A program made the translations under genes and the position numbers. This document shows, piece by piece, positions 23,875-51,158 of a DNA stretch of 64,000 nucleotides. Position 1 is the first letter of the stretch; each line of letters begins with the position of its first letter. Location of the stretch: the NCBI GenBank assembly GCA_032718475.1, contig JAUCBJ010000533.1, positions 62,001 through 126,000 of the forward strand, in the 5' to 3' direction. Source of the stretch: Nemertoderma westbladi. Lineage: Eukaryota > Animalia > Xenacoelomorpha. The notes beneath the pieces were generated by a model. The model was not told the DNA's origin. It made no database searches and was given only the letters and a program-made list of their open reading frames with translations.

Positions 23875-23963
23875 CTGTACAGATAGTTAAATAATTAATA
23901 CAAATTATAATGTGTAACCAACCATATAGCCTGCCTAAAATAAATAATACTTTATGCAGATAT

Positions 23964-24205
23964 GGGGGGGGGGGGGGGGGGGGGTTGACGCAATCAAATC
24001 AGTTCATGCTTTCAAGGGGAAAATCCACGCAAATAACAGCTTATTAAGACTATTGCGTGCGTAACCTGTTATATTGACTTTCTTTTAATGATTGAGTTAG
24101 ATTAGAATAACATGCAGACACGCCACTGTAACCTGCTCTTTTCCAGCTTTCCCTTAATTGATAATTCATATTATTAATTAGACGATATGGGATTTGCTTG
24201 ATTCC
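23964..24205 (+). repeat. dispersed repeat in BIRC6 intron 1, second copy at 57574-57800
   Basis: Poly-G followed by shared blocks GACGCAAT, AGGGGAAA, ACGCAAATAACAGCT, GCCACTGTAAC and ATGGGATTTGC in the same order at both loci. Confidence 0.65.
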
Positions 24206-24394
24206 ACCACCTTCTCTTAAGCTTTTATACTGTTAAAGTTGACAAATAGAACTTGAAAAAGTTCTAAAAATATTACAGGTCATCACAATTGGACCTCCCT
24301 TCCGCCCCGTTCCATTCATTCAACTATCAGACTATACCGGTACTACAACTACAATAACTGATAAAGTCTCCGTCGATATAAGAGGTTAACTTAC

Positions 24395-24570
24395 CTATCT
24401 TTGGAAACCCCCACGGATTTTAACTCAACAAAACTCCCAAGATCAAATACTTTCATACATCCGGAATCTTTGTCGACAACGAATAGAGCATTGAGTTGAG
24501 AATGACAAACCACCTTATAAATATGATCCCGATCCATAGTGATTTCGTTCAGTTCGATATCGTCAACCAT
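24395..24570 (-). CDS. BIRC6: BIRC6/Bruce/Apollon coding exon 1
   Basis: ATG at 24570, 58 codons plus AG|gtaagt donor: MVDDIELNEITMDRDHIYKVVCHSQLNALFVVDKDSGCMKVFDLGSFVELKSVGVSKD. This resembles the BIRC6 segment HPALNAILAV....IKVID. The phase-2 join AG|G keeps the frame into exon 2. Confidence 0.75.
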
Positions 24571-25881
24571 TCACAAATCATAAAAGAACGCCTCGATTAT
24601 TGAAGTTGAAGGGATTGCCGGTACCAGACCAGGTACTGCTGCAACTCGCTGAAGTTCTGAAGTTAGTCAGTTAGGTTACGGTCAGAGTCAGACAGATGAG
24701 GATGGAGGAGTGTTCAAATCTAGGGATGAGAAGTCTGGACGCGTTACACCGTTACAGCCTTCGTTAGGCAGTTAGGCCTACAGCTTTAAGCTGTTAACAG
24801 GCTGACAGGTTACTGGGTTAAGGTAGATCAGTAGATATATGCCTTACTGCCTTACTACAGTACAGCAGTACTACCCGTAGCCGTAGGCTAGGCAGCCAGC
24901 TGGTCAGGCTGTTCAGCTGTTAGGCATTAGGAAGTAGGTGGGGTAGGGGTACCCACTGACCCAAGTCCGGCATCCGGTCTGCCGGTAGTTGTGGTGGAGA
25001 GCAGGCGGTGATGTCAACAATGCAAACAGGCAGTCAGGCAATATGGAAGAGCGAAACGGGAACCAGTACAGCAGTAATAAAATAGGGATGGCATAGGGCA
25101 GAGGGGCCTACCATGGCCTACTATAGTAGGCCATGCTGCCATGGGCCTACGAAAAAACCCAGACAGAGATCGGCTGATTGAAATTGGTGAAAATATATTA
25201 AATTTCCCAAGGATAATACACCAAGAGAAGTAAAGTAAAATGTGCTCCATAATCGAAATTACGTTAAAACATTAAACATTAAACAATGATATAAAAACAA
25301 AACACTTATGGTATTATACTTAATTACAGTGTGTATATAGTATAATGATCAAACTTGGGCCACTTAAGGCCCCTGACAGCCTGAAGAAAATTGCCCTCCA
25401 CCGATACTGCACGTACCATATTAATATAACATAATGACATACAGTATAACTACAATACAAAATTTAATATTTTAGTTAAACTGCATAAACCAACTGAGAA
25501 TTAAATATCTGCTGCTTACAATGCAACGGCACGTAGTTTAAACGCACTAAAATATGCCTGGCAATATCCAAAATTATATTTGGAGCTCTTTGTACCCACC
25601 CATTAGCTCAATATATGTAAAAATACTCGGTTAAACCGTATGCAAAAAGCCAATTGCGGTGACGTTTCAGCCTTCTCATAGGGTTAATGTTAAATTAATA
25701 TTGAAAAATTAGTGCCTAGAAGTAAAAATTTTACTGTTAACTGTGTTCCTATATATAGTTTATTGTTTTGGTTAGAAAAGCCTGCTATTAATACCTGCAA
25801 CTTTCCTTTAAAAGGTACCTTAAATGGTGAATATCGAATTGAAATATTCGCGAAATTAAGTTAATATGTTAAAATACGCTG

Positions 25882-26475
25882 TGTTCGCGGTATTTCAACT
25901 TTCCATAACGCGAGTTGAATATTTTTGTATTTATTTAAAATTGATTATTCCGATATTACTACTGGGTGCGGGACCATGGGTTTTGGGCACATTCAATAAA
26001 CTGGGGGCGATTTATGGGCGAACTTTGGGGCAACTTACAGGGTACGGGAATAATTTCATAGTTATAAGGGCCAGGGGGGGATGGAAAATGCAAGCAGTAT
26101 TCAGGTTAGCCTGAGTACTATTAGGCCCTGGCCAACTTCCTGCTGCCTGTAGGGGTGGATTTGGTAATGCGCCAGGCCTAAAGGACAAGGACTGCCCTTA
26201 GCGGTCCCTGGCCAACAGCAGCCATTACGAGACTGAAAAGAACTCGGACCGCTGACTGCTTGTGTCAGGGATTTGCGACGGGAAACGACGGCCCCTTAGT
26301 AGCCAAGCCATTCTGGTTCTCGATGATCGAACCCTTCGGGGTTCGTGAGGGGTGGAGCGGACACGCGAACGGGTGGCCAACTAACGACTGCCCCCTGAGC
26401 TAAGCCGTACTGGTCTGTTAAGTCACGTCTCCAGCATCGGCGTTTTTCCCCCCTGGTGTAGGGATAACGGCAACA
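25882..26475 (+). repeat. 5' LTR (594 bp, internally deleted)
   Basis: Matches 37710-38242 joined to 39250-39310, with only two substitutions seen. Confidence 0.95.
26063..26067 (+). promoter_or_regulatory. candidate LTR TATA box
   Basis: TATAAGGG about 180 bp into the LTR, also present in the 3' LTR near 37891. Position is typical of a U3 promoter, but this is a motif match only. Confidence 0.4.
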
Positions 26476-26725
26476 AAATTAAGAATAATTAATACGGTTA
26501 ATTTTGACAGGGTGTCAAAATTAAGAATAATTACGGTCAACTTCAACTGGTGGAAGTTGAGAATCCTTCAATACTCTTCAAAACTCTCTACGTGCTTGCC
26601 AGCACCCACTACGAGGAAACTCTGGTATTTGAGTTGAGACGAAGTCGTGGTTTAATTAATCAACAAACTCGATCTAACCAACTCGTAGTCGGCAGATCAC
26701 ATATTGGGAGAGTTGTTAACAGGGA

Positions 26726-26917
26726 ATGGAAGTATCGATCACACCCATTGATATAATTCAAGTTGAGCCAGGAATCTGGCACGTCGAAGTTGAAGTACAA
26801 GGAACGAACATCGGACGATTCAGGATTACCGTTCGGGTGGTCCAAGCTGAGTACAATACCTACGAGGAACTGTTTTATGACATCGCGTATCTAGCTATCG
26901 ACGAGGCGTTACAATGA
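26726..26917 (+). CDS. 63-aa upstream ORF overlapping the gag start (ATGA)
   Basis: ATG-initiated with protein-like composition. Its TGA overlaps the gag ATG at 26914. No family recognised. Confidence 0.35.
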   Translation: MEVSITPIDIIQVEPGIWHVEVEVQGTNIGRFRITVRVVQAEYNTYEELFYDIAYLAIDEALQ

Positions 26918-29900
26918 CGACAAATAACGTATCCGATACCGACGAGATGGATCACCACACAGACTCGGAAGCCGACGAGGTACCAAACGTCAAGAACATG
27001 ACCCGTCGGCTAGGGGCTCTCAAAGGCGGAGTAACCCGAGCGTATCAACGGATGGAGAAACAACTCAAGGGAGTCAAAACCCCCCTCAATGAAGTACAAA
27101 CTCAGCTTCAAAGTATCCGAAACATCCTACAGCGGTACGAAAGAATGATACAGGCGTACCAAGAGCTCGTTCCCTCTACCGATCAGGAAAACTACCCCAA
27201 GTTGGAAGAACACGTTGTACATCTAGATGGGTTCCGCAAACAACACCGGAGGACCCTCAGCCTTGTGAGAGGCTATGAAGAACAGTATTACAAGAGGGCT
27301 GAAAGAACAGACGCGGAATCGGTACGATCCTCCAGCATCAGGACAGCAGTACATCGAAAGAGAACGGGGTCCGCTAGAAATCAGCACTCCAGCGCTAGGA
27401 GCGAGATATCCGGCTCAGCGCGCAGTTCTCAAGGGGCGCCGCCACTCCGAGACCAACTACGAGAACGGAAGGCATTAGCCCTCAAAGCTCGGATGGAAGA
27501 TGAGTATATTCAACTGCAAGCCGAACAAGATGTATTAGCCGCCGAAACACAAAAGCGAGAGGCCGAACAAGCGGCCGAACGACAGGCCGAACAACGCGAA
27601 CAGGAGGCCGAACAACATAGACGAGAGGCCGAACAACATAGACGAGAGGACGAACGGCAGGCCGAACAACATAGACGAGAGGCCGAACAGCAGGCCGAAC
27701 AACGTAGACGAGAGGCCGAACAACATAAACGAGAGGACGAACGGCAGGCCGAACAACGCAAACAGGAGGCCGAACAGCAGGCCGAACAACGCAAACAGGA
27801 GGCCGAACAACGCAAACAGGAGGCCAAACAACGCGGACGAGAGGCCGAACGAGACATCGAACAACGTAAATGGGAAGCGGAAATGCGTAAACAACACGCC
27901 GAGGCCCAAGCAATTCTCATCCACAAAAAGAATGCGGATATTGCAAAACTCGCGGAATACGAAGCCGCACTTATAGAACGAGACATTCAACTCTACGAGG
28001 ACTGGGAAAGGGATATAGATCAGGAATACGAACCAATCCCGGTACCGGAATTAGAAAAGTCATTTATACCGACAGCGGCGAAACTTCCGAAACCCGAGAT
28101 CCCGCCTACCAAACAGTCTACGCTATCGGCACAAGCACCGGTGTTCCATCCCCCACCGGCTACGCTAAAGAATGAGGAACCTTATTTCCCATCCAACACC
28201 ACGACAGCGAGTGTACCCAAGTACGAGCCTGAAAAGGACTCAGAACGGGACGCCACTCCCCAGTCTAACAACCCATTTACATCCACACCACAAACTCGTA
28301 GCCGCGTCATTATTAAAACTCCACCTATTATTGATCCATCAAGTATGGGAGTGAGTGCCAATAACTATAACCCTCAGAGTCACTCCAGTTCAGATGACGT
28401 CAGCATCATCCGGGCGTTGGAGAACCGCCTTGCCATGCCTAAGATGGAGATTCGCACCTTCGAAGGAGATCCCGTCGATTACCTCAGATTCAAGAAACGG
28501 TTCTTTGCGCAGATCGGATCAACGGACATAGCCGACGCACAGAAATTGGTATATTTATCGCAATACCTGGGTGACAAACCACGCAGAATTATTGCATGTT
28601 TCGAAGGAGGTTCTCATGAGGCATACTATGACGCATGGAAAACTCTGGATAAAAGATACGGAAATACCGGAACTATAATTAATAAAACTCTAGAGAGACT
28701 GATACAGGACGCGGGATCACTAGGGGACCCACAGAACATACAGGAATTCTCCGACTCTATGAAGGATGCCTACTATACTCTGAAACCTTTGAATAAGGAG
28801 GACCAGGTGAACAACATTCTAAACCTCCGACAGATCGCCCGGAAGTTCCCCGGATGGCTACAAAGTAAGTGGGCTTATAAATGTGTAGACCTCCGGCGCA
28901 GACATCCAGATCGAGATCCTAGCTTCCTTGAAATGTCGGCATTCCTGGACGATATCTCCGAAGCCATGAATGACTCGATGTTTTCAAAACAGAGTCTCGC
29001 AAAGTTGGACGGAATAGAGAGCAACTCCAGGAGTAAGATAACCCCTCCGAAACCGAGATTCCGCCCCCCACCGGTGAGTACGATGGCCATCACCATGGCC
29101 GAAGATTCCGACGACGAAGACTACGAGGAACCGACATCCGCCGAGGAATGGGCATGTTACCTCGCGAGTTGGGCACCCGAAAGAGAAGGCATCACAAATT
29201 CCCTGCTCTGTCTCTTCTGTGGGGAGAAACATAAAGTGGAATTCTGCAGAAAGTTTCAGTTCGCCGAACTCGTCCCACGCTTCGAGGCGATAATGAAACA
29301 CCGAGGATGCTTCCGGTGTCTTGGAACAGGTCACTATGTTCGGGAGTGCGACCAAAGATCATGCTGTGGTGTCTGTAACGACCAACGCCATCACACGCTC
29401 CTCCACATCCCCGCGAACTTCGATTTTACTACCCTCCCCTTTCGGATCGAAGCCAGGCGAAGAGGAGAAACAAACCACGTCTTCAAAGGAACCCGGACAA
29501 CCCAACGGAGAGAAACCAACCCGTTTAAAATCTCCACCGATACACCACAAGTAACAAATATTTCGGCCACGATTAATCTTATAAATTGCCGCTACATGGT
29601 TTTCGCAAAGGTAATCCCAGTAAGGATCCAAGGAGTCGGCAAATCTTTGACGACACTCGCGTTCCTCGATAACGGGTCCGACGGAACCATCATCGACCGG
29701 GATTTCCTCGAGCAACTCGGCCTAGAATATGAGCCTTGTAAACGGCCCATACAAACCATCACCGATAACAGAGAGGTAGAGTCCGGGGAGGTGCAACTCC
29801 AGATGGAAGGAGTGATGAAGGGCTACGAAATGGTTAAGTTAACCATAAAGAACGCCTTGGTACACACAGACCTCCGGGTGCGGTTCCGACAATCAGCCGA

Positions 29901-32900
29901 GTACGCCCCCCTCATACAATTGGACCGGGACGATGTAGACCTGAGGTGTCCGCAGTTGGACATAAACCGTATCACCCTACTGATCGGACTTGATACACCG
30001 GAACTACACATCCCCACCGGAGATATCGCCCGATCTACAAACCAGGATGACGGATTTTATGCTGAACGAACAATAATGGGATGGACACTCTGTGGCATTA
30101 AGGAGGAAACTACGGACACCTATACCTACCTTCCCAAATGCCAGATTAAAGAGAATGCAACCTCCGTGGGTTATTGCTCAGCTTCGGATTTTGACGAAGA
30201 TTTGTTTCTGGAAACCGAGAAAACCCAACGAGAGATGACGAAATATTTTAATTTGGAGACCCAGGAGTTCGCAGAAAAGGACGAAAACCCATCCGAAGAG
30301 GACCAATATTGTATGGACGTTCTCGACCAGGCCATGTTTAAAGACGGACACTGGTGTTCACCTATGTTATGGAAGGACCCAAACAAACCAATGGCAAACA
30401 ACGCCAGCATGGCACTTAGGCGACTTAAAGGGATTCTACGCCGGCTGAATGACCAACCCGAGATAAAGGAGAAATATAATACCGTAATCCAAGGATATCT
30501 CGATGATGGATTAGCAGAAATGGTACCACGGAACGAACTGCAAGGTGGTAAAAGAACATATTATCTCCCAACCCACTATGTAGTAGAAGCCCGCAAAGGT
30601 GGGAAAATCAGAGTGGTAAATGATGCTGCCGCTATGTACCAGGGCGAATCCCTAAACAGTCAACTTTACACGGGACACAACATATATAGCACACTCATCG
30701 GCGTATTGATCAGGTTCAGGGAAAACCAGGTAGCATTCACCTGTGACATCAAGGCCATGTTTCATCAAGTTCGTACGTTACCAAGAGACTCAGACTGTCT
30801 ACGTATCCTATGGACGGATAAAACGCTTACTCAACAGGAGATTAACCAACTCACGATAAAGGACGTAGACGTAATGCGTATGGTCGTCAGGATCTTCGGC
30901 GCTAAGGACTCGCTGGTAGCATGCAGTGACATGCTAAAGAGGACGGCAACTATGTGCGAAAACGAGTTCCCTCCAACCGTCATAAAAACCATTCGACGAT
31001 GCTTCTACGTGGACGACGGATGCGCCGGCGCGGATAATGTGGATGAGGTGTATCGGCTAGCAATGGGGATGGTAGAATGTCTAAAGAAAGGAGGGTTTCC
31101 GCTCGTGAAGTTCAGATCCCACGACAAAACATTTATGGAAAAGTTTCCGGAGGACATCCGGCTGGAAAATAACAAAATGTATTCAGAGGATGTGGAACAT
31201 CGTGTACTCGGGATTGAATGGGACATAGAATCAGACGAATTCATCTTCAAATATAAACCCCTACCCAAGCCTATGACAAAAAGGGGATGTTTGTCGATAA
31301 AAAGCGCCATCTTCGACCCACTAAATTTCATATCTCCAGTAACCTTGGCCGGAATGAACCTGATTAAGGAAATGTGGATAGAAGGACTGGGATAGGACGA
31401 AGAGCTCCCCCCACACCTCAGCGTCAAATGGAGAAAATGGACGGAGCAGCTCGAACACCTACATCTTATGCGGATACCTAGACCGTTCTTCCTCGATAAA
31501 TTACCCACCGATATCTTCCAGCTCCACACCTTTTCGGAGGCTTCGAATACCGGAATCGGCGTAGTCACCTTCTTACGGAGACTAAGTAACGATGGAAACG
31601 GCGATACAAGCTTCTTATTCTCCAAAGCAAAGACAGTATCCGGGGAATTCGTAGCAACAATTCCGAGACTCGAGCTACAAGCTGCAGTTTGGGCAGTAAG
31701 ACAGAATCGCATGGTCATGCGGAACCTACGGATCCCCATAGAATCTCAACACTTCTGGGTAGATTCGAGTATAGTTCTCTATTACCTCCACTCTCCATCA
31801 CGGCATCACACCACGTTTGTTGCAAACCGAGCCACGGAGATTAAACAGTGTACCGGCCGAGAACAGTGGCATCACGTGAACGGGAAGGAAAACCCAGCGG
31901 ACTTATCAAGCCGAGGCGCCACCCCAAAACAACTCGGTAAAAGTAAACTCTGGCTTACAGGCCCGGAATTCCTACAGCAGCCACAATTAACATGGAGTAC
32001 CCGATTCGACCCCGAGCTCGATAGCGGAAAATACTCCGAGGACGATAAAGAGATCCGTAAAGTCCATCGAAGAAACGCGGTGGAAATTTATAGTTGTCTG
32101 ACTGAGCCTGCAAAGGACTCGGGCAGGCACTATAACGTCGCGACGATCACTCAACTAGCGGCGCCTTTACATCGGTTGATCGAGCGAACTTCATCCATGA
32201 GACGGCTCGTCCACCACGTTATAACCCTTCGCAACTTCCTACGGTGGAAAAACAACAAACCGATAGTTCAACGGAATATACAAGAACTTATTATCGCGGA
32301 GAAGTGTATTGTTAGATATGTCCAGAAAGAAAGTTTCCCCGATGAATGGGAACAACTTAGTGCGGGCAAAACGTTGAAACCGGACAGCCCAGTCTATCAA
32401 CTGAGACCAATGATGGGAGAGGACGGACTGATCCGACTGAATACCCGGATGGCAAACGCCCCGGTCGAATATGAGGTTAAATACCCGGCGCTTCTGCCCG
32501 GAACGTCGACACTAGCTAAGCTATTAATTCTACAATGTCACGAGGACAACCACCACGCAGGACAGAATTGGATTATAGCTAATATAAGACAAAGATATTG
32601 GATCACCCACATCCAGCCACTGATCCTGAAAGTGTTGAAACGTTGCTTCACCTGCAGACGTTACCTAGCGCCACCAATCACCCAAAAGATGGCCGACTTA
32701 CCAGCCACCCGTCTACAAGCGGATTCCCCACCATTCTACGTCACCGGAGTGGACTGTTTCGGACCGTTCACGGTTATTGAATGACGATCCAACATCAAAT
32801 GCTGGGGAGCCATCTTCACCTGCCTAAGGTCTCGGGCAATTTACCTAGATATCGTGGTAAATCTGACACAACACGCATTCATCAACGCTCTGCGTCGGTT

Positions 32901-33711
32901 CGTGGCGAACAACGGGACATGCCGCCACATGTATTCCGATAATGGTACAAACTTTGTGGGAGGAGAAAGAGAACTTAGAGAGGCGATCGAGGGATGGTTT
33001 ACCGATAACACCGCATCCCAAGTCTGGAAGGAACACCAGATACAGTGGCACTTCCAGACCCCCTTAGCACCCCATACGAGCGGGGTAAGGGAGAAACTGA
33101 TCGACCTAGTGAAACGATCCATGCGCGTCGCTCTAGGCGATACCCGGGTAACCCATGACACCCTCCGCACAACATTCTGCGAGATCACGGCTACCCTGAA
33201 CAACCGACCCATTGTTCCTATCCGCGACGACCCCACAGACCTGGAGCCCCTCACTCCTAACCACTTACTGGGGAGACCCAAAACCCACGTCCTCCCAGAA
33301 ACCATGTTCCCGGATCCCAATGAGATCGCGAAACATACGAACTGGAAAAAGGCCCAAGCGTTGGCAGCGCATTGGTGGAGAATTTGGGCCCAGGAGTATC
33401 TCATAACCCTCCGGACCAGGAGGAAATGGAACAACACCTACAGGAACGTCGCAGTTGGCGACATGGTACTAGTTAGAGAAGATCTCAAAGACCGCGTTCA
33501 CTGGCCTGTGGCGCGGGTCGTGACCATACACCCAAGCAAAGACGGACTTGCGAGGACTGTGACGATACGAACGAAATCGGGCCACTACCAACGCCCTATC
33601 CAGAAGCTGTGCCTTCTTGAAGGCAATGACAGTGGTGATTCTACGAGAGGTGATAAGTTCCCTACTCAAGATCCTGCTGCGGACATCGGTGACAATGACA
33701 AATGCGTTTAA
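26914..33711 (+). pseudogene. BEL/Pao gag-pol polyprotein with two in-frame stops
   Basis: ORFs 26914, 31468 and 32854 share one frame. Motifs: DUF1759-like gag (FEGDPVDYLRF), triple Cys/His knuckle (CLFC..H, CFRCLGTGH, CGVC...HHTLLH), protease FLDNGS, RT (DIKAMFHQV, FYVDD), RNase H (LHTFSEAS, IPRLELQAA, NPADLSSRG) and integrase (GVDCFGP, SDNGTNF, LTPNHLL). Stops at 31393-31395 (TAG at a conserved W) and 32782-32784 (TGA). Confidence 0.95.
27560..27880 (+). repeat. coding tandem repeat in gag (EAEQRKQ/QAEQ coiled coil)
   Basis: GAGGCCGAACAA-based in-frame units of 12, 21 and 33 bp. Confidence 0.85.
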
Positions 33712-33994
33712 ACCCTTCTCATCATGTTGACAAACTCTTTTTAAACTGTGATTTACTGACAATGAGTTATGGACCCCCCTTAAACCAACTGTAACCACGC
33801 AATGGTATTTGTGTTTCCCCGTGTGTTATGTGGAGTCCAGCGTCACCCTGCAGATGTTTCGGCTGACGCAGGGTCGTTTATGTTTTGTTTACCCTGATTT
33901 TGGTCATCAGGACCTACGATATTGGATTATTGGAAATGGAAAAGATTTGAAGTGGAATTCATTGTATTCATTGCAGTATGTTATGTTGTCCGTT

Positions 33995-34410
33995 GCGTGC
34001 GCAGTTCGGGGCGTAGGCGGTGTAACGAGTCCAGCTGTAGATCCTGGATTGCCGCGCAACACCCCCTCTATCCCGTTATTCTGGTGGGTCCATGGTGCAT
34101 CCACATGACTTCGACGATAGAGGGTTTTATGTTCTCAGTCGCGTTATTCTGGTGGGACCGTTGCGTGGATTTTGGGGCGTAGGCGGTGTAACGAGTCCAG
34201 CTGTAGATCCCAGAATGTTGCGTAACCCCATCCCACATGACTTCGTAGACTGAGCTGTATGTTGTTGGGAGTGTTATTCTGGTGGGTCCCTGGTGCATCC
34301 ACGTGACTTCACTCCCAGCGTCTTCATTGTCCATTACGTGCGCAGTTTGAGGCGTAGGCGGTGTAACGAGTCCAGCTGTAGATCCCAGATTGCCGCGTAA
34401 CACCCCTTCC
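33995..34410 (+). repeat. three degenerate direct repeats between pol and the extra ORF
   Basis: GGCGTAGGCGGTGTAACGAGTCCAGCTGTAGATCC occurs near 34010, 34176 and 34351. GTTATTCTGGTGGG also occurs three times. Confidence 0.85.
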
Positions 34411-34943
34411 ACGACAAAGATTAACCAAAGAAAATGATTCAATATAGTTGGATCAGACAACTCTACTATAAACCTGAATGATGACGCGTATGCTGATGAA
34501 AATGAAATGATGCGCACCCTGGTGCTGCGCTTATAACCAATGATGATAGCCGGGGGGCTATAAACCCAATGATGATGTGGAAATAAATAAATGTGAAATA
34601 AATGGTGGAACTAAATGATGAAATATATGTGGAAATAAATGAAATGAGATGAAATAATAATGAAATGAAAAAAGAAAAAAAAAAGGTATAAAAAAGTCTA
34701 AAGAAAAGAATTAGAAAAAAGAAAAGGACAAAAAAGTCATAAAAAACTGGTTGGATATTAATGTATAGCTATAGTAACTGTAAATGCTGAATGTATTAGC
34801 AATAAGATGATAGATGCCTATATAGCAATGTTATTAATAAACTGAATTAAATAAAAAACTGAATTATTCTGCTATCGCTATAGTTTCAGACTTTCTGGAC
34901 TTATAATTAACTGATCTAATTTGTAACGGATATAATCGTAAAT

Positions 34944-37544
34944 ATGGACCCAAATCGCCAAATTATCGGCGAATTACGTAACACGATAGATCTACTGGAA
35001 TATTCGCAACCCGGATCCCCTGACTTTGATACAAATTGGAGCACCCTGCTAAATGAGAACGTGCGAGTCATTAAATTCACCGGGCGAGAGGGACCGGATT
35101 CTAAGAATCTACGAGCCCTCCGGTTAGCCGATGCTAGTACGAGACTGAAAAGAACTCGGAACGCAAAGGCAACCGGAGGGGACGATTCGTCGTTTTGGGA
35201 AACGTTCCGGCAGAGCGTTTACAGATCCCGATGTTTGATCTACGACAACGAAGGAAACGCGACGCCCACCTCGAAAGCGATTACATTGGCGAGATGTCAA
35301 AGTTTCGTCGACGACAAGAGTACGTACCTCGCCCACTGGGGAAACCTGTCAGAGTGTATGGCGACGCTTCGAGAGGAACGCGTATCGATTATCCAGAACC
35401 GAGACGACTACCAGGAAAAGTACGGGGCGAAAGAATACGGTCGATCCTTAGTCGTCGTCCTCGGAACCCTGGACGGTTTGGTACTGGTGTGCCGAATATT
35501 CCCGACACCCAGACAGGAAGTGCAGGCAGCCGGAGCGATCTGGTTGCTGCCTCCGGAAATCCAAAAGATCCTCTTCGACTTCGACGTCATTAAAATCGGG
35601 TCAGATATCAAGGCGGACGTCCGGAACGACTACGCGAACGCTCCTGCAGGAAGAAACCGACGAGACGACCTCAACGCCCTTAGCCATTGCATCGACACTC
35701 AAACGCTACTAGCCTGGTTACGATTCGCCGAGTTCATGCGAGGATTCGAAGAGGTGAGACCGACGAAATCAGGGATCGGCTACCTCGCTGTGCTCAACGG
35801 CGGTATCGACTTCAAACCCCAGAAATTCCGGGACTATAATAAAATATACGGTGGATACCCGGGATTAGAAATAAAGAGCGAGCGAGAGGGTCGATGGAAG
35901 GACGTTGATCGGAAGTGGACGATACACCAAAGGTGGGAGAATCCCGATCGACGGAACTACGTTTACGTCGTTATGGAGTGCTACACCGTCGCTAAGTTTA
36001 TCTGTAAAACTCTCGATAACCTTATTACGGCGGTCCCCCTTTCCTTCGTCGACTACGACTGGAACGAGGTCATACACCACGCGTTCAAAGCGGTCGAGAA
36101 CATCGCACCGGGAGAGACTAAAACGCTCGCCGTTATCGATTCCTGGGACGAGAGCGGACCCTACGACATCCCTACGATTACCGAACTTCTCGGTGCGGAG
36201 GAGCCTCTGATCTCTTCGGAAGGGGAAGAGATATGGCTAAACGAGGGTGTTCTACTCTCCACCCCGAAGCGACAACTCGAGCCGGAGGCCGCGTATGGAC
36301 CGGCCGCCAAACGGGTTGCCTCGGCCGAATCGATGAAGAGAGCAGGCGTTTACACCCCACGCGGCTCCGGTAGCCCCGCGAGGGAGGTAGCTACTACAGC
36401 TGCATTGAGCGACTTCGGCGACATATGCCAACGGTTATCCCCGTATCCTTTCCCGGGTGGCGAAGATTGGTCGTCGGAGATTCCGAGTACCAGCCACCAA
36501 CGGACCCGCGCAGCGATACTGATCGAGGAGGGCCCCAGTGATGCGCCGACCCCCGACGATCTCCTCGGTATCCCTCCGTCTAAAACCCCGGCACCTCTTC
36601 GCCGACCAGCGGTGGCTACTACACCCGCCGTTCCTCAGGACCCTATGCGACTAACCCGTTGGTACGCCGAGCAAACTGAATGGATCCACCGCCAGAAACG
36701 GTCATCCGAGTTGAGACCAGCGGGATACAAAGAAGGTTATCGGAGCGAGAACCTACTACGCAAAAGCCTAGCATTCCGCGGGCTACCGACCACCGCGAAT
36801 ATTCCGAAGAGCGACCGACGACTCGAGTATCACGTCGGCGTCCCGATTCCGATATTTCCTGGTCGAGAGATGCAGTTGGAGGTATGCGGCGACTGTGGTT
36901 CGGAGCAGTGCCCACGCGGCAGAAGGAATCGGGTTACCGATTCATGCCTACAGCTCCTCGGGATACTCTATTGCCCATACTGCGCGACATCGGGCCACGA
37001 CGTTTCCGTCTGTCCGATCCTTTATAACCTCTGCACCACGTGCGGTTTCCGTGGACATTCCTCTAGCCCCCGCTGCTATATCAAATGTCCAACCAAAGAC
37101 GTTACCGCTATGGGAAATATGGTCATGTTTGAAACATACGCAAACAGCCACTTAAAGACCAAGGTTCGGAGAAACGCTCGGAATATTGCGCAGGAGATGG
37201 CGTGCGGGTATTTCTCCTTCCCGGAACACCTCCACACGTCGGCCACACTACCTTTCCATTACGTGGATCTGCTACTGAGCGCCGGATTATTCGGGCCATT
37301 TGAAGTCATTAGACGATTATACTCGTATAAAGAGGAGTTCGGTGACGGAGAATGGTTCCTAGAGGCACGCAAGTCTGAGTTGGAAAGACGAACCGACATG
37401 ATCCCTATGCCTTCGAAAGGAAGAGCCGCCAGGAGACAAGCCGAAGCGTTACTCACAATGGATGTTGACGCTCCTCTACCAGCCATAGCGATCGATGAGA
37501 GTCGACGGGCGAAGAGACGAAAGGCGTATCAGAGAAAGAAATAG
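34944..37544 (+). CDS. retrotransposon extra ORF: DEDDy-like (WRN/EXD/MUT-7-type) 3'-5' exonuclease domain plus CCHC zinc knuckles
   Basis: 866-aa open frame. ExoI LIYDNEG (D101, E103). LPPEIQKILFDFDVIKIGSDIKAD (ExoII D225) matches the WRN-exo pattern LPxxLxxLLxDxxIxKVGxxIxxD, followed by CIDTQ and SGIGYL. ExoIII W......YVYVVME (Y341, E345). Knuckles CPYCATSGHDVSVC and CTTCGFRGHSSSPRC. Confidence 0.75.
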   Translation: MDPNRQIIGELRNTIDLLEYSQPGSPDFDTNWSTLLNENVRVIKFTGREGPDSKNLRALRLADASTRLKRTRNAKATGGDDSSFWETFRQSVYRSRCLIYDNEGNATPTSKAITLARCQSFVDDKSTYLAHWGNLSECMATLREERVSIIQNRDDYQEKYGAKEYGRSLVVVLGTLDGLVLVCRIFPTPRQEVQAAGAIWLLPPEIQKILFDFDVIKIGSDIKADVRNDYANAPAGRNRRDDLNALSHCIDTQTLLAWLRFAEFMRGFEEVRPTKSGIGYLAVLNGGIDFKPQKFRDYNKIYGGYPGLEIKSEREGRWKDVDRKWTIHQRWENPDRRNYVYVVMECYTVAKFICKTLDNLITAVPLSFVDYDWNEVIHHAFKAVENIAPGETKTLAVIDSWDESGPYDIPTITELLGAEEPLISSEGEEIWLNEGVLLSTPKRQLEPEAAYGPAAKRVASAESMKRAGVYTPRGSGSPAREVATTAALSDFGDICQRLSPYPFPGGEDWSSEIPSTSHQRTRAAILIEEGPSDAPTPDDLLGIPPSKTPAPLRRPAVATTPAVPQDPMRLTRWYAEQTEWIHRQKRSSELRPAGYKEGYRSENLLRKSLAFRGLPTTANIPKSDRRLEYHVGVPIPIFPGREMQLEVCGDCGSEQCPRGRRNRVTDSCLQLLGILYCPYCATSGHDVSVCPILYNLCTTCGFRGHSSSPRCYIKCPTKDVTAMGNMVMFETYANSHLKTKVRRNARNIAQEMACGYFSFPEHLHTSATLPFHYVDLLLSAGLFGPFEVIRRLYSYKEEFGDGEWFLEARKSELERRTDMIPMPSKGRAARRQAEALLTMDVDAPLPAIAIDESRRAKRRKAYQRKK

Positions 37545-37700
37545 TGGATCGGGATATTCCAGGAACATTTATCGAACATTTATTTTTATACAAACTCTAG
37601 GCCAAATTAATTAAAAACTATGCAATATTAAATTTGGGTTTTTTATATTGGGAATGACCTACGCAAACTCAATCGACCGACAGACTTCACGAAGGTCATT

Positions 37701-37709
37701 GGGGGGGAC
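37701..37709 (+). other. polypurine tract
   Basis: GGGGGGGAC immediately before the 3' LTR. Confidence 0.8.
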
Positions 37710-39310
37710 TGTTCGCGGTATTTCAACTTTCCATAACGCGAGTTGAATATTTTTGTATTTATTTAAAATTGATTATTCCGATATTACTACTGGGTGCGGG
37801 ACCATGGGTTTTGGGCACATTCAATAAACTGGGGGCGATTTATGGGCGAACTTTGGGGCAACTTACAGGGTACGGGAATAATTTCATAGTTATAAGGGCC
37901 AGGGGGGGATGGAAAATGCAAGCAGTATTCAGGTTAGCCTGAGTACTATTAGGCCCTGGCCAACTTCCTGCTGCCTGTAGGGGTGGATTTGGTAATGTGC
38001 CAGGCCTAAAGGACAAGGACTGCCCTTAGCGGTCCCTGGCCAACAGCAGCCATTACGAGACTGAAAAGAACTCGGACCGCTGACTGCTTGTGTCAGGGAT
38101 TTGCGACGGGAAACGACGGCCCCTTAGTAGCCAAGCCGTTCTGGTTCTCGATGATCGAACCCTTCGGGGTTCGTGAGGGGTGGAGCGGACACGCGAACGG
38201 GTGGCCAACTAACGACTGCCCCCTGAGCTAAGCCGTACTGGTTCTCGATGACCGATCCCTTCGGGGTTCGCGAGGGGTGGGACGGACATGCGAAAGGGCT
38301 GGCCACAGGACGGGTTCGACGAGGACTGCCCTTAGCGGTCTCTGGTCAACGGCAGCTATTACGAGACTGAAAAGAACTCGGAACGCTGACTGCTTGTACC
38401 GGGATCTGCGACGGGAACCGACGACAGACCCCTTAGCCAAGCCGTACTGGTTCTCGATGATCGTTCCCTTCGGGGTTCATGAGGGGTGGAATGGACATGC
38501 GATGGGGTCGAAAGACAAAGGACTAGACTCTACTGGCCTACCGACTGTTCGGAGCAGTTTCTCGGCTGCCGAAGCGACTACGAGCCTGAAAGGGACTCGG
38601 AAAGCCTAGGTGGTTGGGTTTCTGCGATGAACCGACGGACCCCTAGCCAAGCCGTTCTGGTTCTCGATGATCGAACCCTTCGGGGTTCGTGAGGGGTGGA
38701 ACGGACACGCGAACGGGTCCACCGACACGACAGACTCCTAGCCAAGCCGTACTGGTTCTCGATGACCGATCCCTTCGGGGTTCGAGAGGGGTGGTACGGA
38801 TACGCGACAGAGTCTACCGACTGGACCAACCCTTAGCCAAGCCGTGCTGGTTCTCGATGATCGTTCCCTTCGGGGTTCGTGAGGGGTGGAACGGACACGC
38901 GACAGGGTCGACCGACACCGACACTACGGCACTAATACTAGGACCGAGGGAAAATCTGGGGAACATTAGGTAGGCTAAAATCTGAGCGAACAGTGGGTAA
39001 TTAAATAATATACCGTAGGGATTTATATTATCGTGTATAATTATTGTGAATATTTGGTGTATATTGATTTGGGGAAGCCCAAAATTATTCTTAATCAAGT
39101 TTCAATGATGTTGAACGGGTTTCAACTATAGGAAGTTACATTAAAGAGTATATCCAACTAATGCAGCTTTTTATCAACCGCAAACTTGCATCTCAGAAAA
39201 CATTCCCTCCCCTCAATCAATATCCGGTGACTGGCCGGGGCTCGGTGGTCTGTTAAGTCACGTCTCCAGCATCGGCGTTTTTCCCCCCTGGTGTAGGGAT
39301 AACGGCAACA
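37710..39310 (+). repeat. 3' LTR (1601 bp, full length)
   Basis: TGTTCGCGG...CGGCAACA followed by the TSD CGCTG. Confidence 0.95.
38018..38910 (+). ncRNA. putative cis-acting structured RNA array in the LTR (6 K-turn/UUCG hairpins, 3 GAAA hairpins)
   Basis: Repeated CTC-GAT-GA-Y-stem-CTTCGG-stem-N-GA-GGG and CGAG-ACTGAAAAGAA-CTCG modules, with compensatory changes in the outer stems. Confidence 0.6.
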
Positions 39311-40509
39311 CGCTGAAACGACACCTCAATTGGTAAGTACCTGCATCTCAGGTTATTATAAGCAGCTACAAACTAACAAACAACTTCAAAGTTAGATATT
39401 CATCTCATCGTCAATTAAATCAGCACTACACATATTGCAAATACGTTGTTCCCTAACTATTCCATGCCATCATCCCGTTACTATATTAAGATAACAGTCG
39501 TCGCCTAACTAAAAGATCAGTTAACACATGTAAATAAATATGTTGAGGGTTCAAAAATTTATTTAATATAAAATCAACCTTTTGGGGAAGATGCCACTTC
39601 AGATACACGTAGGTGACACATGAGTTTCAACTTTCAATTAAAAGATAGAACACATTGATGACTATGGTACATAATGTTCTACTGTATCTTACTTTAAATT
39701 TGGTATCTTTCTCATTGACAACCACTCAGGTACTGAAATAAAAATAACAAATAAATATCACATATGAATATTTGTAAAGCACATCATGGTGTCAGTCATC
39801 CCATGTTAGAAGGATAGGTACTAAATGAGAATCAAATTTGAAAATTGTTGAGATTCAATAATGTGTGTAGGGTGCAGTTCATCTGGGTCCCGCCACGGCA
39901 GTCCAGTTTCCAGGTGTATGTATATGTTATGTCATTATGTCATAAAGTGGATGAAAGTTGCACCACACAGTTTCAACTGTTTCGGTATATTTTCCCAATA
40001 ATGAAATCCAGATATTAATACTGTATAGGGGAAAGCAGCACCGCTGGTAGCTAAGCTAGTGATTGCTGCTGCCCGGGGGGGGGGGGGGGGGGGGGGGTGG
40101 TTCTAAATGCCATTTAATTTAGTTAGTACGATTATAAAATATTAATGATACTTAAAGTATTGAGTGTAATATGTCGATATGTACAGTATTAAATAGCAAT
40201 AGGTGACTAATACAGTAGGAATAAGTTAGCATGGCGTACAATTCTTTCTTTAAGGGTGCTCCTTAAGACCTCGTGGTTAAAATAATCTCTCTAAAATCAG
40301 TGAAATCACTCTTAATGCAGCACGGCCATCTCGTCGGCCATCATATGAAGAAGGCCTTGGCTATGATCTCATTCATCTAACATCTAACCATACAGTACTG
40401 TAAAGACAGTAGAACGTTTAAACTTCTAACATGTAAACTTCGGAATAATTTCTTCACTCGGAAGAAAATATGACAATTAGTGCTTCCGAAGTTAGTTGTG
40501 CTCGTCAGT

Positions 40510-42070
40510 AGGTTCTGACAATTTGTCAGCTGAACACTTTATAAACAGCAATTGTGAACGACTTAACTCATAGCATTATTTTTAAGCACGTTTTTAAGCA
40601 ATTTTTGTGCTTAAACACGGTTTTCTAACAAGTGCAATTATCGATAGTATCATATAGTACCGATTATTAAAGATAAGAATTGTGATATAAGCGACAAAGC
40701 GAACTATCGACCAGTTGCCATAGCAACGGCCTTCAGTAAGCTTTTAGAATATATTATTTTATCTCGGATACAAACCCATTTAATATGCAGTGATTATCAG
40801 TATGCTTTCAAACCGAATAGCGGTACAGAATTATGTGTATATACATTAAAAGAAGTAATAGATTATTACCTAGACAACGAGACGCCAGTTTATGTTTGTT
40901 TCTTGGATGCCTCAAAAGCTTTTGATCGAATCGACCACGATAAATTATTCCAGAAATTAATTTCTCGGAACGTTCCCATTTATCTTGTTCGCCTCCTCGC
41001 ATTTTGGTACCGCAATCAGACGTTGAAAGTGAGATGGAGTTCCACATACTCCAAATCATTTACAGTGTCCAATGGCGTCAAGCAAGGTGGAGTGTTGTCT
41101 GGATATTTTTTCAATGTGTACATGGACAACCTATCTTGTAATTTATCTTGTGCTAATGTTGGTTGTATGATTAACGGGCGTAGGATAAACCATTCAATGT
41201 ACGCAGACGATATCAGTTTGATATCAAATTCATTGGTAGGTGTACAGAAACTGATTAACACCTGCGAGGAATATGCTATTTCGCACTCGATTTCTTTCAA
41301 CTTAAAGAAAAGTAAAGTTGTGATATTTTGCCCGAAATCACGAAAAGTAAGCCAAATGGCGCAGGTTTTTCTTTTTGATCGTGTACTTTCTAGAACGAGC
41401 ATGTATACATACTTAGGCCATGTTATTCATGATACACGAGATGACGATTATGATATTAAGAAATTAACTCGAGGTGTTTACGCTCGCGCTAACATGTTAA
41501 TTCGTAAATTTATACGCTGCTCTAATTTAGTGAAAGTGAAACTGTTTCGTGCATTTATAACTCCGCTGTACTGCAATGCTCTCTGGTCACGTAGTAATTA
41601 CTCATCAATTGTTTACAACCGACTTAGAGTAGCGTACAATAACGCAGCACGTAAGCTTTTCTCGATCCCGTTTGGTGCTAGTTTGTCGAATTTCTTCGGT
41701 TGTAAAAATTTACCATGTTTCATTCACATTCGATATAAATCAATTTCCAGTTTACATAGTAGAATTTCTATGTCTAATAATGTAATCATCAATTCAATTA
41801 GTTGCTATACATATTTTCATGGTTCACGAATTAATGATATGTGCGATTCAAGAAATTTGGTTTCATAGTTTATATCCCATTATCCTCCGTTAGTAATTTT
41901 CACTTTATAACTACATATTTATAATTAGTATAAATTATAATATCATATGTGCTGTAGGTAGATAGATCGATGTAGAATAGTTACAAATAGATATGGGCTG
42001 ATTGTTGTTTGTAATATAAATATCATGTTGCCTGGTGTAAATGATAAATAAATAAATAAATAAATAAATA
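40510..42070 (+). mobile_element. 5'-truncated non-LTR retrotransposon (L2/CR1-group-like) RT fragment
   Basis: VPIIKDK..D.SDKANYRPVA, QYAFK, FLDASKAFD, GVKQGGVLS, YADD and YTYLG motifs. Frameshift near 40650. (TAAA)n tail at about 42045-42070. Confidence 0.9.
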
Positions 42071-42289: not shown

Positions 42290-43993
42290 ACAAGTCCCTA
42301 AAAGGTGCCACCCTGCTCCATAACGCGGGAAATTCAAATGATTGAAAGACATGTAATTTATACTGCAAAGGCCAAAGGCAGAAAGGGTGGCAGATCAGAT
42401 CTGCCACCTATATTTTGGCGGTAAATTCAAATCTGTTTTAACATTGAATATATGAATAGAGTAAGACTAATGTAATACGGCCTAATGTAATAATGGGCCC
42501 GCATACCCAGTAGTGACCGTGTTTGTATATGTGATGGCAGTTCAGTACAAAATGAACATCATGCAATTTTAATGTGCCCAAAAACCGCCTTTATAAGAAA
42601 CAAGTATAGTATTGTAGGCTGCATTTGTATGTCCGAATTTATGGTTCAGTTTTCAAATAATATAATAGTAAGTGCAATTACAGAATGTTTAGAAGTATTA
42701 GATAACTAGAATTCATGTAAATTTGTATTAAGTTGGACTGTATCTTTGTCGCAATGGTATATTTACAAGTTATTATTGTAAATTTATTTAATTGATTTAA
42801 TTTGGAAGATATTGTCAATAAACATATATATATATATAATTCATTGAATCAGAATAAATTATTTCTTATCGGTTTAACTCACTCATCCGTTGTTGTTGTT
42901 GTTTTATCTATTCTGGGGCTTCGAGCAGCACGTGAACAATTAAGCTGACTGGTTAACTAGTCTGGGACTTCGAGCAGCACGTGAACAACTAAGCTAACTG
43001 GTTAACAAGTCTGGGACTTCGAGCAAAATTTAAAATTGAGGAGGGGGGCGGGTCGGGTGATTTGGCTTAACTTCTATCCCAGTAAAGTATAGAACATTAT
43101 AATCCTAACAATTAATACACTTATACCAAGTATGTTAATAGTGGATTTCAAGTGGATAGATGATAGAAAGACGCAGTGAATTGATATATTTTTGGCGTTT
43201 GATTCAAATTACAGAATTATAATATTTCCATTACAAACTGTACACAGTGTGCTACATAATGTACGTGGGTACGTACTAAAAGGTCAAGGAGCTAGAGCAG
43301 TAGACTTCATACAGTAAACTTCTTACTGTAGTAGTACTTACAGTACTTCTACTGTAATAACAGTTCAGTTTAGTTGTTCACGTGCTGCTCGAAGTCCTAG
43401 ACTAGTTAACCAGTCAGCTTAATTGTTCACGTACTGCTCGAAGTCCCAGACTAGGAAACCAGCCAGTTTAGTTGTTCACGAGCTGCTCGAAGTCCCAGAC
43501 TGGGAAACCAGCCAGTTTAGTTGTTCACGTGCTGCTCGAAGTCCGAGACTAGGAAACCAGCCAGTTTAGTTGTTCACGAGCTGCTCGAAGTCCCAGGCTA
43601 TTTAACCAGTCAGCTTAATTGTTCACGTGCTGCTCGAAGTTCCAGACTAGTTAACCAGTCAGGTTAGTTGTTCACGTGCTGCTCGAAGCCCTAGACTAGT
43701 TAACCAGTCAGCTTAGTTGTTTACATGCTGCTCGAAGCCCCAGAATAGATAAAACAACAACAATAACGGATGAGTGAGTTAAACCGATAAGAAATAATTT
43801 ATTCTGATTCAATGAATTACATTTAGTCTTGCTCTCTTCATGTAGGGTATTCAATGTTAAAACTGATTTGAATTTACCGCCAAAATATAGGTGGCAGATC
43901 TGATCTGCCACCCTTTCTAGTACAAATTACATGTCTTTCAAGCATTTGAATTTCACGCGCTATGGAGCAGGGTGGCACCTTTTAGGGACTTGT
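42290..43993. mobile_element. non-autonomous foldback (Mutator-like) DNA transposon
   Basis: Long TIRs ACAAGTCCCTAAAAGGTGCCACCCTGCTCCATA.../...TATGGAGCAGGGTGGCACCTTTTAGGGACTTGT. 9-bp TSD GTCTGCTAG at 42281-42289 and 43994-44002. Internal tandem repeats lie in opposite orientation in the two arms. Confidence 0.9.
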
Positions 43994-48522: not shown

Positions 48523-51158
48523 TTACTCAAGGTTAAAGGTAGGAATAGGACGAGTTCCCATATAATCACCTATAGGATTGTATGTAACATCGTAACCAAA
48601 GGCTTTTGGCCCAACGACTCTCAGAGCCTCCGGGGTAGTGAGCAACGGAGGTGCGGGCAAACATATGACGCTCACTCTGAGACCGTATCGCAACTCCTCG
48701 CAAGGAATCCCAGTTCCCAACTCCAGGTTTAACACCGCTATAAGATCCGGCACGCTCGCCAATATCTCATCTCCGCATTTCGCTATTAAATTTTCGTTTT
48801 GGAATTCAACGACAATGGATTTATCAGCAAATGCCCTCGTCCCTTGCACTGTTATGCTACCGAAATTAAATCCACCTTGAATCCTGCGAAAAGAATCCAC
48901 GATCTTTCCTGATATCAACAACTTGCCATTTTCCATTTCAATAATTCTCCCAACGGGAGACTTATTTTCGCGTTTGGCTGTCAGCACTGCGTGACCTAAA
49001 TGTCGTATTCTACTCAGACTGTTAGCCACAAAGTAACGCCCAACGCCTTCTTTATCGCAAGACACCATGGATAAACCACCAGATATACCCATCTCGGTGA
49101 CTATAAACCTAAAGCGGTCTTCTGTCGCCTTGGCTGAGGGTGATTTTACAATAACAGCGCAACGACCTTTATTATCGGTGAGCACCGCAGGTGCGGACGA
49201 TTCACCGTAAACAAACGGACCGAACATCTGCAGTTCGGGGAAGGCGCGACCCATCCCATCCGCGTCCACTACCGGTATCCCTAACGCCGCTCCTATGGCA
49301 ACCGGTTCTAGACTATTCAAGCCCCCGACCTCCGCACAAATAACACTCGTATTACTCCAATTAACTCCAGCATCCACCGGAGACCAATCCTCTATGTAGA
49401 CAACTCCTTTATCATCCACTTTACATAAATTACCGTTATTCTTTATAAAAACATCAATATCGGTAAATTTATCTACTATTTCAGAATAGACTCTCCTTAA
49501 ATACGTCACAGCTTGAACGGTCTCTTTACCTGTGCAAAGTTTCTCTATCAATATTGTCGGGGCACCCATAAAGGCAATATTAACAACTTTGCCATCACGT
49601 GGTATACTACTTGGGTCTATAATCTTTGTGGTTCTGCCATCTTTCAACATCTTGATTAACCTCAACCGACCTGCTCTGGGAGAGCCACCACCCCCGCATC
49701 CAAGGATAGTGGCTCCAACACTCATACACTCGACATCGTACAGACTCACTATCCACTCACCATCTTTATTGACAACTGCTTCTGTGTGTTGCTCAACAAT
49801 CTCAGAGCCTTCCACGTTTTTCAATATCTCAACAGACTTCGGATTGAAACTTCCTGAAAGACGTTCGATAGCAGATAGATCACGAGAACACACACCAGCT
49901 ATATCGTCTCTACCAACATCATCCACTTGCAGAAGGAGATCCGAAACTATTTTAATTTTAAGTCGCACCGTATTCACTGTTCCTTGAACATAGCTCAACT
50001 GAATCTCAGAGATTTCTGTGATTTCGTTGTTATCCATGTCGCCTCCGGCTCGCCCCAACATAACCTTAGCTTCCTCCTTTGCATCGCTCAACGCTCTTTC
50101 CCTATTGTCCATGATGACGATTCTATCGAAGGTCGCGCTAATCTGACTAAGGGCAGCCCCAACGGCATTGGCGACGTCATAGAAAGGTGGTCGAATAACT
50201 TGACTCGCGCATTTTAATTCTAACGATTTAATGAGGCAACTTCCACCGCCTACGAGCAGAACCTTGACAGGTTCTTTGCTGGTTTTCATCTGATCTACAG
50301 CATCCTCAACAATTTCTAGAATTTTATTATGTACCTTGTCGATAACCGCTTTATCCAAAAGTTCTTTATCGAGTAGATCCTTATTTCCGATATCTAGTAG
50401 ATCTTCAGCGACGGCCACGTCAGTAGTGGTGAAGACGTCTCCCCCGAACACCAGGGAATCCGCCTCCAGACGATGTCCAACACTCCGTGGACCAACCGTG
50501 ACGATCCCATCAACGTCGACCCCAACCACGGAACCCCCACCCAAACCAACGCTGCTGGTATCCGGTAGGGAGAAATTCGTACGGATCCCCCCCATATAAA
50601 CGACAGAACCAGCTTGACGGGGGAATCCACCAACCAGAGCCCCAACATCGGTGGTGGTGCCTCCGATGTCAACCACTATGCCATCCTTGATGCCGCTGAG
50701 AAAATACCCGCCTCTAAGTGAGTTAGTTGGACCACAGGATACAGAGCGCACTGGATAAGTAAGCGCATCTTCCGGAGTTAGAAGGGTTCCATCATTCTGA
50801 GTAAAAAATACGTTACAATCAAGCCCGAGATTTTCAATACCTACCTCAAACGATCGAAGCATGTTCTTACTTATTGGTTTAAGAGTTTCATTGAGTAATG
50901 ATGCGTTTTCTCTCTCCAGTATCCCGGTGCTGCTAACTTGATGTGATAAAGTAACACTAATGTCAGGAAACTTCGACTTCAAATATTCACCAACCGCGAT
51001 CTCTTGACTGTTGTCCACCGAACTGAAGACACCGCTAATGACGCAGTTAGCTACTCCCTTGAGTTTCATGTCTCGTATCGCATCTTCAATCTGATTGAAG
51101 TTGATTTGAGATATAGGAGTCCCATTGTATTCACAACCTCCATCTACCATATACTCAC
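48523..51158 (-). CDS. hydantoinase A/oxoprolinase-like plus DUF917 fusion protein, large 3' exon
   Basis: Motifs GILERENASLLN, QNDGTL, GPTNSLRG, VVDIGGTTTDVG, GLGGGS, VANAVGAA, then DUF917-type GATILGCGGGG, EVGGLN, DADGMGRAFPEL, FQNENL, VPDLI and ELRYG. Acceptor ttcttctag lies just 5' of 51158. The N-terminus is absent. Confidence 0.85.

Follow-up and report, generated by a model that had tools for sequence, protein, structure and literature searches.

The question raised by this locus is whether the 3' LTR of a BEL/Pao retrotransposon carries an array of protein-binding RNA structures and, if it does, what such an array could be for. The original prediction was of six tandem kink-turn (K-turn) hairpins, each capped by a UUCG tetraloop, which would form a multivalent protein-binding scaffold. 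The window (the whole stretch of DNA that was analysed, 64 kb in length) contains one full-length BEL/Pao LTR retrotransposon on the plus strand, with the following components:

25877-25881 and 39311-39315: 5-bp target duplication flanking both LTRs
25882..26475, plus strand: 5' LTR (594 bp, TG...CA)
26914..33711, plus strand: gag-pol of BEL/Pao type (DUF1759, protease, Peptidase_A17, integrase, DUF5641)
33986-34409: three related 83-nt repeats spaced by about 170 nt, between pol and ORF2
34944..37544, plus strand: ORF2 (866 aa; exonuclease-like domain, Cys/His knuckle-like domain, basic C-terminus)
37701-37707, plus strand: polypurine tract, G7, just before the 3' LTR
37710..39310, plus strand: 3' LTR (1601 bp, TG...CA)

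The element and its family

The BEL identity assigned from the sequence was borne out by the Pfam domains, and the hallmarks of the group are present (DUF1759 Gag, aspartic protease, Peptidase_A17, integrase, DUF5641, TG...CA LTRs, target duplication and polypurine tract); BEL/Pao elements have been reported from animals only (PMC3601003). The 5' and 3' LTRs are 99.6% identical over 533 bp, and since just 2 of these 533 aligned bases differ, the insertion is recent. The copy in the window is damaged: pol is broken by in-frame stops at 31393 and 32782 (one UGA, the other UAG), and the 5' LTR has suffered a deletion of 1007 bp (38243-39249 in 3' LTR numbering) with a 4-nt microhomology at the joint, so that five of the six K-turns are lost there and one A rod, one B rod (both described below) and a fragment remain. 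Six of the sequencing runs listed, belonging to four studies, contain the LTR or part of it, and in X1 and X3 its depth summed over contigs was very high, a sign of a large family, though depth does not equal copy number. The retrotransposon family is young, high-copy and homogeneous.

The rest of the window includes a 39-bp satellite that fills its first third (positions 1-22000, more than 400 overlapping repeat windows), a fragment of a non-LTR-type reverse transcriptase (40648-41868), a foldback element with a 49-bp internal array (42290-43993) and two long uninterrupted host-like ORFs on the minus strand, with no introns in either: a hydantoinase/S-Me-THD-like gene (48523-51150) and an Ofd1/TPA1-like 2OG oxygenase (61533-63275).

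Two kinds of RNA rod in the 3' LTR

The six-copy pattern was matched by all six units of the 3' LTR, with cores starting at 38147, 38244, 38453, 38663, 38758 and 38853; the approximate positions first given refer to the same units and lie about 6 nt upstream of the true starts. A seventh copy was found at 26319, within the 5' LTR, and no copy was present on the minus strand of the window. The units are repeated as predicted, but rods of a second type, three in number, lie among them, and the array is more than a plain tandem. It reads A B B A B A B B B, with six K-turn/UUCG rods (B) and three loop-E-like/GAAA rods (A), nine in all. Two further A-type structures were found inside coding sequence. 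All are on the plus strand:

28205..28255, plus strand: A-type apical module within gag (module 28223; E 0.002; weaker stem)
35116..35180, plus strand: A-type rod within the ORF2 coding sequence (module 35139; E 8.9e-9; z -6.51)
38019..38112, plus strand: rod A1, basal motif, long stem, loop-E-like UA/GA loop, apical GAAA (z -4.25)
38116..38208, plus strand: rod B1, K-turn, bulge 38150, cUUCGg cap, basal AGUA/GAA motif (z -2.86)
38216..38306, plus strand: rod B2, K-turn, bulge 38247, 3b.3n C.C (z -0.08)
38325..38418, plus strand: rod A2 (z -3.52)
38426..38512, plus strand: rod B3, K-turn, bulge 38456 (z -1.34)
38545..38633, plus strand: rod A3, stems diverged, apical module the same (z -3.80)
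38636..38722, plus strand: rod B4, K-turn, bulge 38666 (z -3.31)
38731..38817, plus strand: rod B5, K-turn, bulge 38761, 3b.3n C.A, bearing the outer-stem compensatory changes quoted in the original prediction (z -2.35)
38826..38912, plus strand: rod B6, K-turn, bulge 38856 (z +0.03)

A basal motif, stem-(U/G)A-GC...GC-GA-stem, is common to all nine rods, and its outer stem varies in sequence and still pairs. The two types differ at the apical end, which is the K-turn in B rods and a GAAA hairpin above a loop-E-like loop in A rods.

K-turns have been described in ribosomes, snRNPs, snoRNPs, riboswitches and a small number of mRNAs. In the B rods the GAU 3-nt bulge, the tandem G.A pairs, the closing C-G pair and the cUUCGg tetraloop are identical in the six units, as had been described; the U.U-type mismatch, stated for all of them, occurs at 3b.3n in four, the other two having C.C (B2) and C.A (B5). 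The 4b:4n pair is C-G in five units and C.A in one; the bulge is closed, and the upper helix is a 7-bp stem capped by UUCG, without an apical A-rich loop. Judged by sequence, every unit has the features of a standard K-turn (3-nt bulge, G.A and A.G pairs, two helices) and the determinants of Snu13/15.5K targets (U at L3, closing base pair). Snu13/15.5K needs the G.A pairs and the bulge-closing pair and favours U at L3 with a neighbouring U.U; SBP2 wants a purine-pyrimidine fourth pair as well and prefers an open loop (PMC1874613). A -1 C:G, which these units have, and a 4b:4n C:G favour folding with Mg2+ alone, U.U being intermediate, and human box C/D keeps G:C at 4b:4n (PMC5689011). The units accordingly have a standard U4-orientation sequence that fits the published Snu13/15.5K binding determinants, as claimed, but the box C/D consensus also claimed for them does not hold: the LTR contains no RUGAUGA, and its 4b:4n pair is C-G as against the human G-C. 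The array units are, on these sequence features, standard K-turns and not box C/D motifs. They resemble the 5' stem-loop of U4 snRNA and other Snu13 targets in the bulge with U at L3, the tandem G.A pairs, the closing C-G and the loop-capped non-canonical stem (PMC1874613, PMC5689011). They are set apart from the U4 K-turn by the non-Watson-Crick 3b.3n and the 7-bp cUUCGg stem, and, unlike it, they occur as six copies in the LTR of a mobile element, with no snRNA or snoRNA context.

The strict scan required each K-turn to carry a closing tetraloop of the UNCG or GNRA kind. It gave seven plus-strand matches in the 64-kb window, all of them array units, together with one unrelated minus-strand match, and none in 95,923 bases of related loci; shuffles of the array contained a match in 9 of 3000 cases, rising to 386 of 3000 once the tetraloop requirement was dropped. 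A covariance model of the unit recovered the same seven copies and nothing else in 159,923 bases. A looser K-turn scan was dropped, all loci having matched it at background rates. Exact-pattern scans for the K-turn core found no locus in either viral or metagenome contigs, and no cross-species homologue of the unit was detected in these contigs or in the related loci. Rfam, searched over 23000-42000 of the window up to E 5, had no match to the array, the only hit being a chance miRNA match (E 4.6) outside the element. The six K-turn units are paralogues and therefore count as one origin, and the last three form a plain 95-bp array.

Compensatory base changes had been put forward as evidence for the structure. 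This was not upheld for the core: the 21 core pairs did not score above the control (334 of 500 shuffles reached the observed score), 15 of them being invariant, two showing one-sided changes, one a double change and three departing only through mismatches. Nor is there compensation above the K-turn, where every change breaks pairing, mostly from A-U to U.U. The outer-stem swaps do exist, and the outermost stem pairs in all rods, but the P2 position quoted in their support is unpaired in three of the six units. The five copies of the A module show double-sided changes in 6 of 16 predicted pairs (a predicted structure and a small alignment). Among the rods of this element the outer stems and the A module thus show covariation, and the K-turn core shows none above the control.

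The proposed preference for the sense strand was found in all ten stretches, which fold better on the plus strand by both energy and z-score; this strand bias rests on G.U, which makes up 43 of the 257 predicted pairs. The z-scores range from -3.5 to -4.3 in the A rods and from -3.3 to 0.0 in the B rods, three of the six B rods folding no better than shuffles, under an energy model that gives K-turns no reward and with array units that are not independent. Other strong hairpins from a rough scan reached only -1.1 to -2.0 under dinucleotide shuffles. Pseudoknot and kissing-loop folds of the B unit were set aside by eye, a simple rod explaining the same pairs.

Reads covering one B unit show at least six variant rows at five places, none listed in the bulge, the G.A pairs or the closing pair, and a 2-nt loss at the tetraloop at about 2% of depth. 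The list of read variants is incomplete, because it omits the 3b change known from B2 and B5, and is not counted as proof of invariance; nor would invariance of the B unit among copies prove selection, because the family is young and homogeneous. In DNA contigs every array bin has about the same depth as the LTR elsewhere, and among the variant rows listed the joints that delete units reach a depth of at most 288, against tens of thousands. Several mismatch or wobble sites of this copy have the pairing base in most other contigs, again among the variant rows listed. The contig depth fits retention of the full array, and recent spread fits it too.

The A-type rod of ORF2 has an AGUA/GAA loop and a GAAA hairpin atop a 10-bp outer stem of different sequence. 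Both the gag and the ORF2 modules carry the full AGUA/GAA sequence, which we take to be the sarcin-ricin motif, and they lie in different codon frames. Nothing else at this locus speaks as well for selection acting on RNA structure as this reuse of the A module in coding sequence, although template-switch copying could have seeded the modules there.

Array position, primer site and ORF2

The original prediction placed the array downstream of the LTR TATA box, in R/U5. Two further features bear on this:

26478-26490, plus strand: putative primer-binding site, 2 nt past the 5' LTR, not of the TGG tRNA type
39083-39095, plus strand: exact 13-nt complement of the primer site, probable 5' end of the transcript (self-primer)

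The putative primer site lies at the offset expected for one, and a 13-nt match between it and the LTR arose in only 2 of 5000 local shuffles. The primer-site sequence is repeated at 26520-26532, and the leader (26476-26565) contains two hairpins (z -3.49) besides this duplication. A TGG primer site is absent after the 5' LTR, and the 64-kb window contains no tRNA gene. There are TATA-like boxes at positions 39036 and 39060, and an ATTAAA at 39140. Because of the primer-site complementarity, these TATA-like boxes and the ATTAAA, we infer a transcription start near 39083; R and U5 would then comprise the last 230 bases, and the array would lie in U3, present once per RNA, in the 3' UTR. A TATA box does exist at 37891, as predicted, but a start there would imply an R-U5 of 1.4 kb, and the R/U5 placement of the array is probably wrong. 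No RNA run holding the array stretch was found among the sequencing runs listed; run X6, whose RNA type is a guess, has a contig containing a single A and a single B unit, and this does not show expression.

Self-priming elements are primed by the 5' end of their own RNA, to which the primer site is complementary (PMC4600332, PMC6317226). The self-primers described (Tf1/Tj1/sushi, Tcn1/TAR) are like this element in that the primer site, a putative one here, matches a stretch within the LTR in place of a tRNA; unlike them, this element belongs to BEL/Pao, a group absent from the self-primers described in the portions of these sources consulted (PMC4600332, PMC6317226). A literature search of titles and abstract starts, with most subscription papers outside its scope, found no self-priming BEL/Pao element, and three relatives of the present element (L004, L006 and L007) differ from it in having TGG tRNA-type primer sites. 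The primer-site match would extend self-priming to BEL/Pao.

ORF2 lies between pol and the 3' LTR, and part of it is likely to be a degenerate 3'-5' exonuclease-like domain. In an alignment of three sequences, the ExoI D-x-E segment is present in P0001 and P0003 and absent from ORF2, which is thus likely to be inactive as a nuclease. A full HMMER scan with ORF2 found seven distant relatives among 1.84 billion representatives, and a domain profile search found five, two of them new; a word-indexed search gave no homologue, and protein scans of viral contigs found nothing. The Cys/His domain is common to the relatives, and the nuclease-like part to several of them; the former weakly resembles retroviral (HIV) nucleocapsid knuckles (E 0.003). 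The Atlas lead was 0.92, with 163 shared features. Pfam on P0001 matched the exonuclease family at E 0.2 only, searching PDB sequences by means of the nuclease-like profile returned a single chance match, and the AlphaFold models were of too low a quality for fold search (mean pLDDT 38.6 for ORF2, 37.5 for its nuclease-like part). As an observation in its own right, ORF2 and its relatives constitute an accessory ORF family downstream of the BEL integrase, with a Cys/His domain that has no Pfam model and that P0002 carries twice.

The metagenome scan retained 10 ORF2-relative loci out of 234 pattern matches, and BEL integrase sequence lies upstream of the ORF2 relative in seven of the ten. The original prediction put forward a possible partnership between the array and ORF2; none of the ten loci contains a matching array unit (strict scan and covariance model). 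In seven of them the sequence past ORF2 could be read, and no array was visible; L006 and L007, in which the 3' LTR was readable end to end, lack the array, and their LTRs are short, with TGG sites after them. ORF2 therefore does not need the array, and on the loci sampled the array appears to be lineage-specific, the relatives being distant (protein identity about 25-35%). Two side observations were made on these loci: direct repeats flank the ORF2-like gene in L001 (8070-11133) and L003 (6127-10627), which may be small or decayed elements; and AATAAA next to CTGGG, ATTTATGGG and ATTCAGGTT are words common, by eye, to the LTR (37800-37945), L006 (10500-10570) and L007 (8920-8990).

The DEDDy ORF3 of bdelloid LTR elements is likewise an additional ORF downstream of pol that includes an exonuclease-like domain, but it keeps its catalytic residues and belongs to non-BEL clades, while ORF2 lacks the ExoI segment and has the Cys/His domain in addition (PMC5408684). 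In Egalitarian, a domain of this exonuclease-like kind binds an RNA localisation stem-loop (bioRxiv 10.1101/2025.08.03.668247).

What the array may do

The array is a real and unusual structured RNA, a variant of the cis-acting RNA elements of retroelements, and its function is predicted. The multivalent scaffold first proposed proved the most economical reading of the units. The reading we lean towards, a little short of even chances, is that the nine rods may form a protein-docking platform in the 3' UTR (U3) that aids nuclear export of the unspliced RNA. Transcription would start near 39083, copying the array once and ending it about 230 nt before the poly(A) signal, a step we regard as quite likely. 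Each B rod would then kink and bind a host protein of the L7Ae family, most likely Snu13/15.5K (somewhat less secure, and still probable), and the A rods may bind a protein of the element itself, either the ORF2 knuckle domain or Gag, which we suggest only tentatively. Once loaded, the RNA would be directed to export, much as retroviral RNAs are through the Rex and Rec response elements. Snu13 on K-turns usually goes with nuclear or nucleolar RNPs, and Snu13 loading could cause nuclear retention instead of export. To our knowledge, RNA export, protection and priming have been little studied in BEL/Pao.

The MPMV CTE is a retroviral export element at the 3' end that is comparable to the array. 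The HTLV-1 RxRE, which lies in the 3' LTR (PMC7551171), and the HERV-K RcRE (PMC10746203) are, like the array as predicted, large structured cis-elements in or next to the 3' LTR, with repeated protein-binding loops and an accessory ORF in the element. The array differs from RxRE, RcRE and CTE in its tandem K-turn rods, its putative recruitment of the L7Ae family and its BEL/Pao element, export being proposed here by analogy. Cer1 is also an LTR retrotransposon with an extra Cys-rich protein of its own, CERV, needed for export of the genomic RNA, but no RNA response element or stem-loop is named for CERV in the portion of the account consulted (PMC10309623). The GA motifs of BC1/ID retroposons share with the array the use of tandem G.A motifs, which direct RNA transport there, but they are of SINE type, single and bound by hnRNP A2, and form no array in an LTR (PMC4033767).

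A more elaborate form of this proposal, to which we would give only a small chance, is a self-priming BEL/Pao element with a two-code RNP scaffold in its 3' UTR: the K-turns would recruit Snu13/15.5K into the snoRNP trafficking route, and the A rods, which recur along the genome of the element, would be read by the dead-exonuclease/knuckle protein, acting as a Rev-like adaptor.

Protection of the RNA is the strongest of the rival explanations, though an unlikely one. K-turn proteins give end protection, and some long RNAs carry snoRNP caps; a protein-loaded array could mainly shield the RNA from decay or silencing, either 3' exosome trimming or nonsense-mediated decay over the 5-kb stretch after pol. 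The structural evidence is the same as for the docking platform, the probable site of the array is near the 3' end, and gag-pol ends at 33711, more than 5 kb before the predicted poly(A) site. The units, however, are hairpins within the RNA, not box C/D pairs at its ends, and end protection does not readily account for the A rods that lie in gag and ORF2.

We consider it rather improbable that Gag recognises the array as a scaffold for packaging or dimerisation. Rods that are repeated and capped by GNRA loops are well suited to nucleocapsid binding, and the A module in gag is carried by the full-length RNA only; but the U3 array would also be present on any ORF2 message and hence cannot alone mark the genome, and the leader has hairpins of its own near the primer site, at the usual place of packaging signals.

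The same low standing is given to the explanation in which the repeats are DNA enhancers of U3, or a neutral amplification of a self-complementary unit, with the K-turn incidental. Tandem repeats are common in U3, the last three units are such a simple array, the core covariation is not significant, and relatives without the array as well as deleted forms exist. On the other hand, cUUCGg, GAAA, the K-turn and AGUA/GAA are RNA-specific motifs that occur together; there is the G.U-based strand bias; the outer stems and the A stems covary; and an A rod is kept within coding sequence at z -6.5.

Less probable still is that the K-turns, by recruiting SBP2 or L30, promote stop-codon recoding or translation as 3' elements of a SECIS-like or translation-enhancing kind. 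Their AUGA/GA core lies in a likely 3' UTR, and pol has two in-frame stops, one of them UGA; but the other is UAG, and the apical A-rich loop on a long helix II, a feature of SECIS elements, is replaced here by the UUCG-capped 7-bp helix. A SECIS identity was rejected on this apical-loop rule, on the lack of a SECIS match in Rfam, and on the open loop and purine-pyrimidine fourth pair that SBP2 wants (PMC1874613), the units having a closed bulge and C-G.

Tandem ribozymes are common in the repeats of retroelements, and the GCGAA before the closing stem is reminiscent of J4/2 of HDV-like ribozymes, but self-cleavage by the units is highly improbable: Rfam gave no match up to E 5 bar the chance miRNA, neither strand has a hammerhead core, the units are simple stems with, by inspection, too few bases for the HDV double pseudoknot, and hammerhead, HDV-like, twister and pistol folds were rejected, in part on the Rfam result and the core search.

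No K-turn in an LTR was found in the literature, in a search of titles and abstract starts with most subscription papers outside its scope. If neither protein binding nor a reporter effect were seen, the array would be a structured but lineage-specific LTR repeat. If it is functional, retroelements would have a new host-factor route in the shape of a natural LTR array of six K-turns; if the two-code scaffold is true, a mobile element would have hijacked the K-turn/L7Ae system by means of a natural multivalent array, like the engineered ones.
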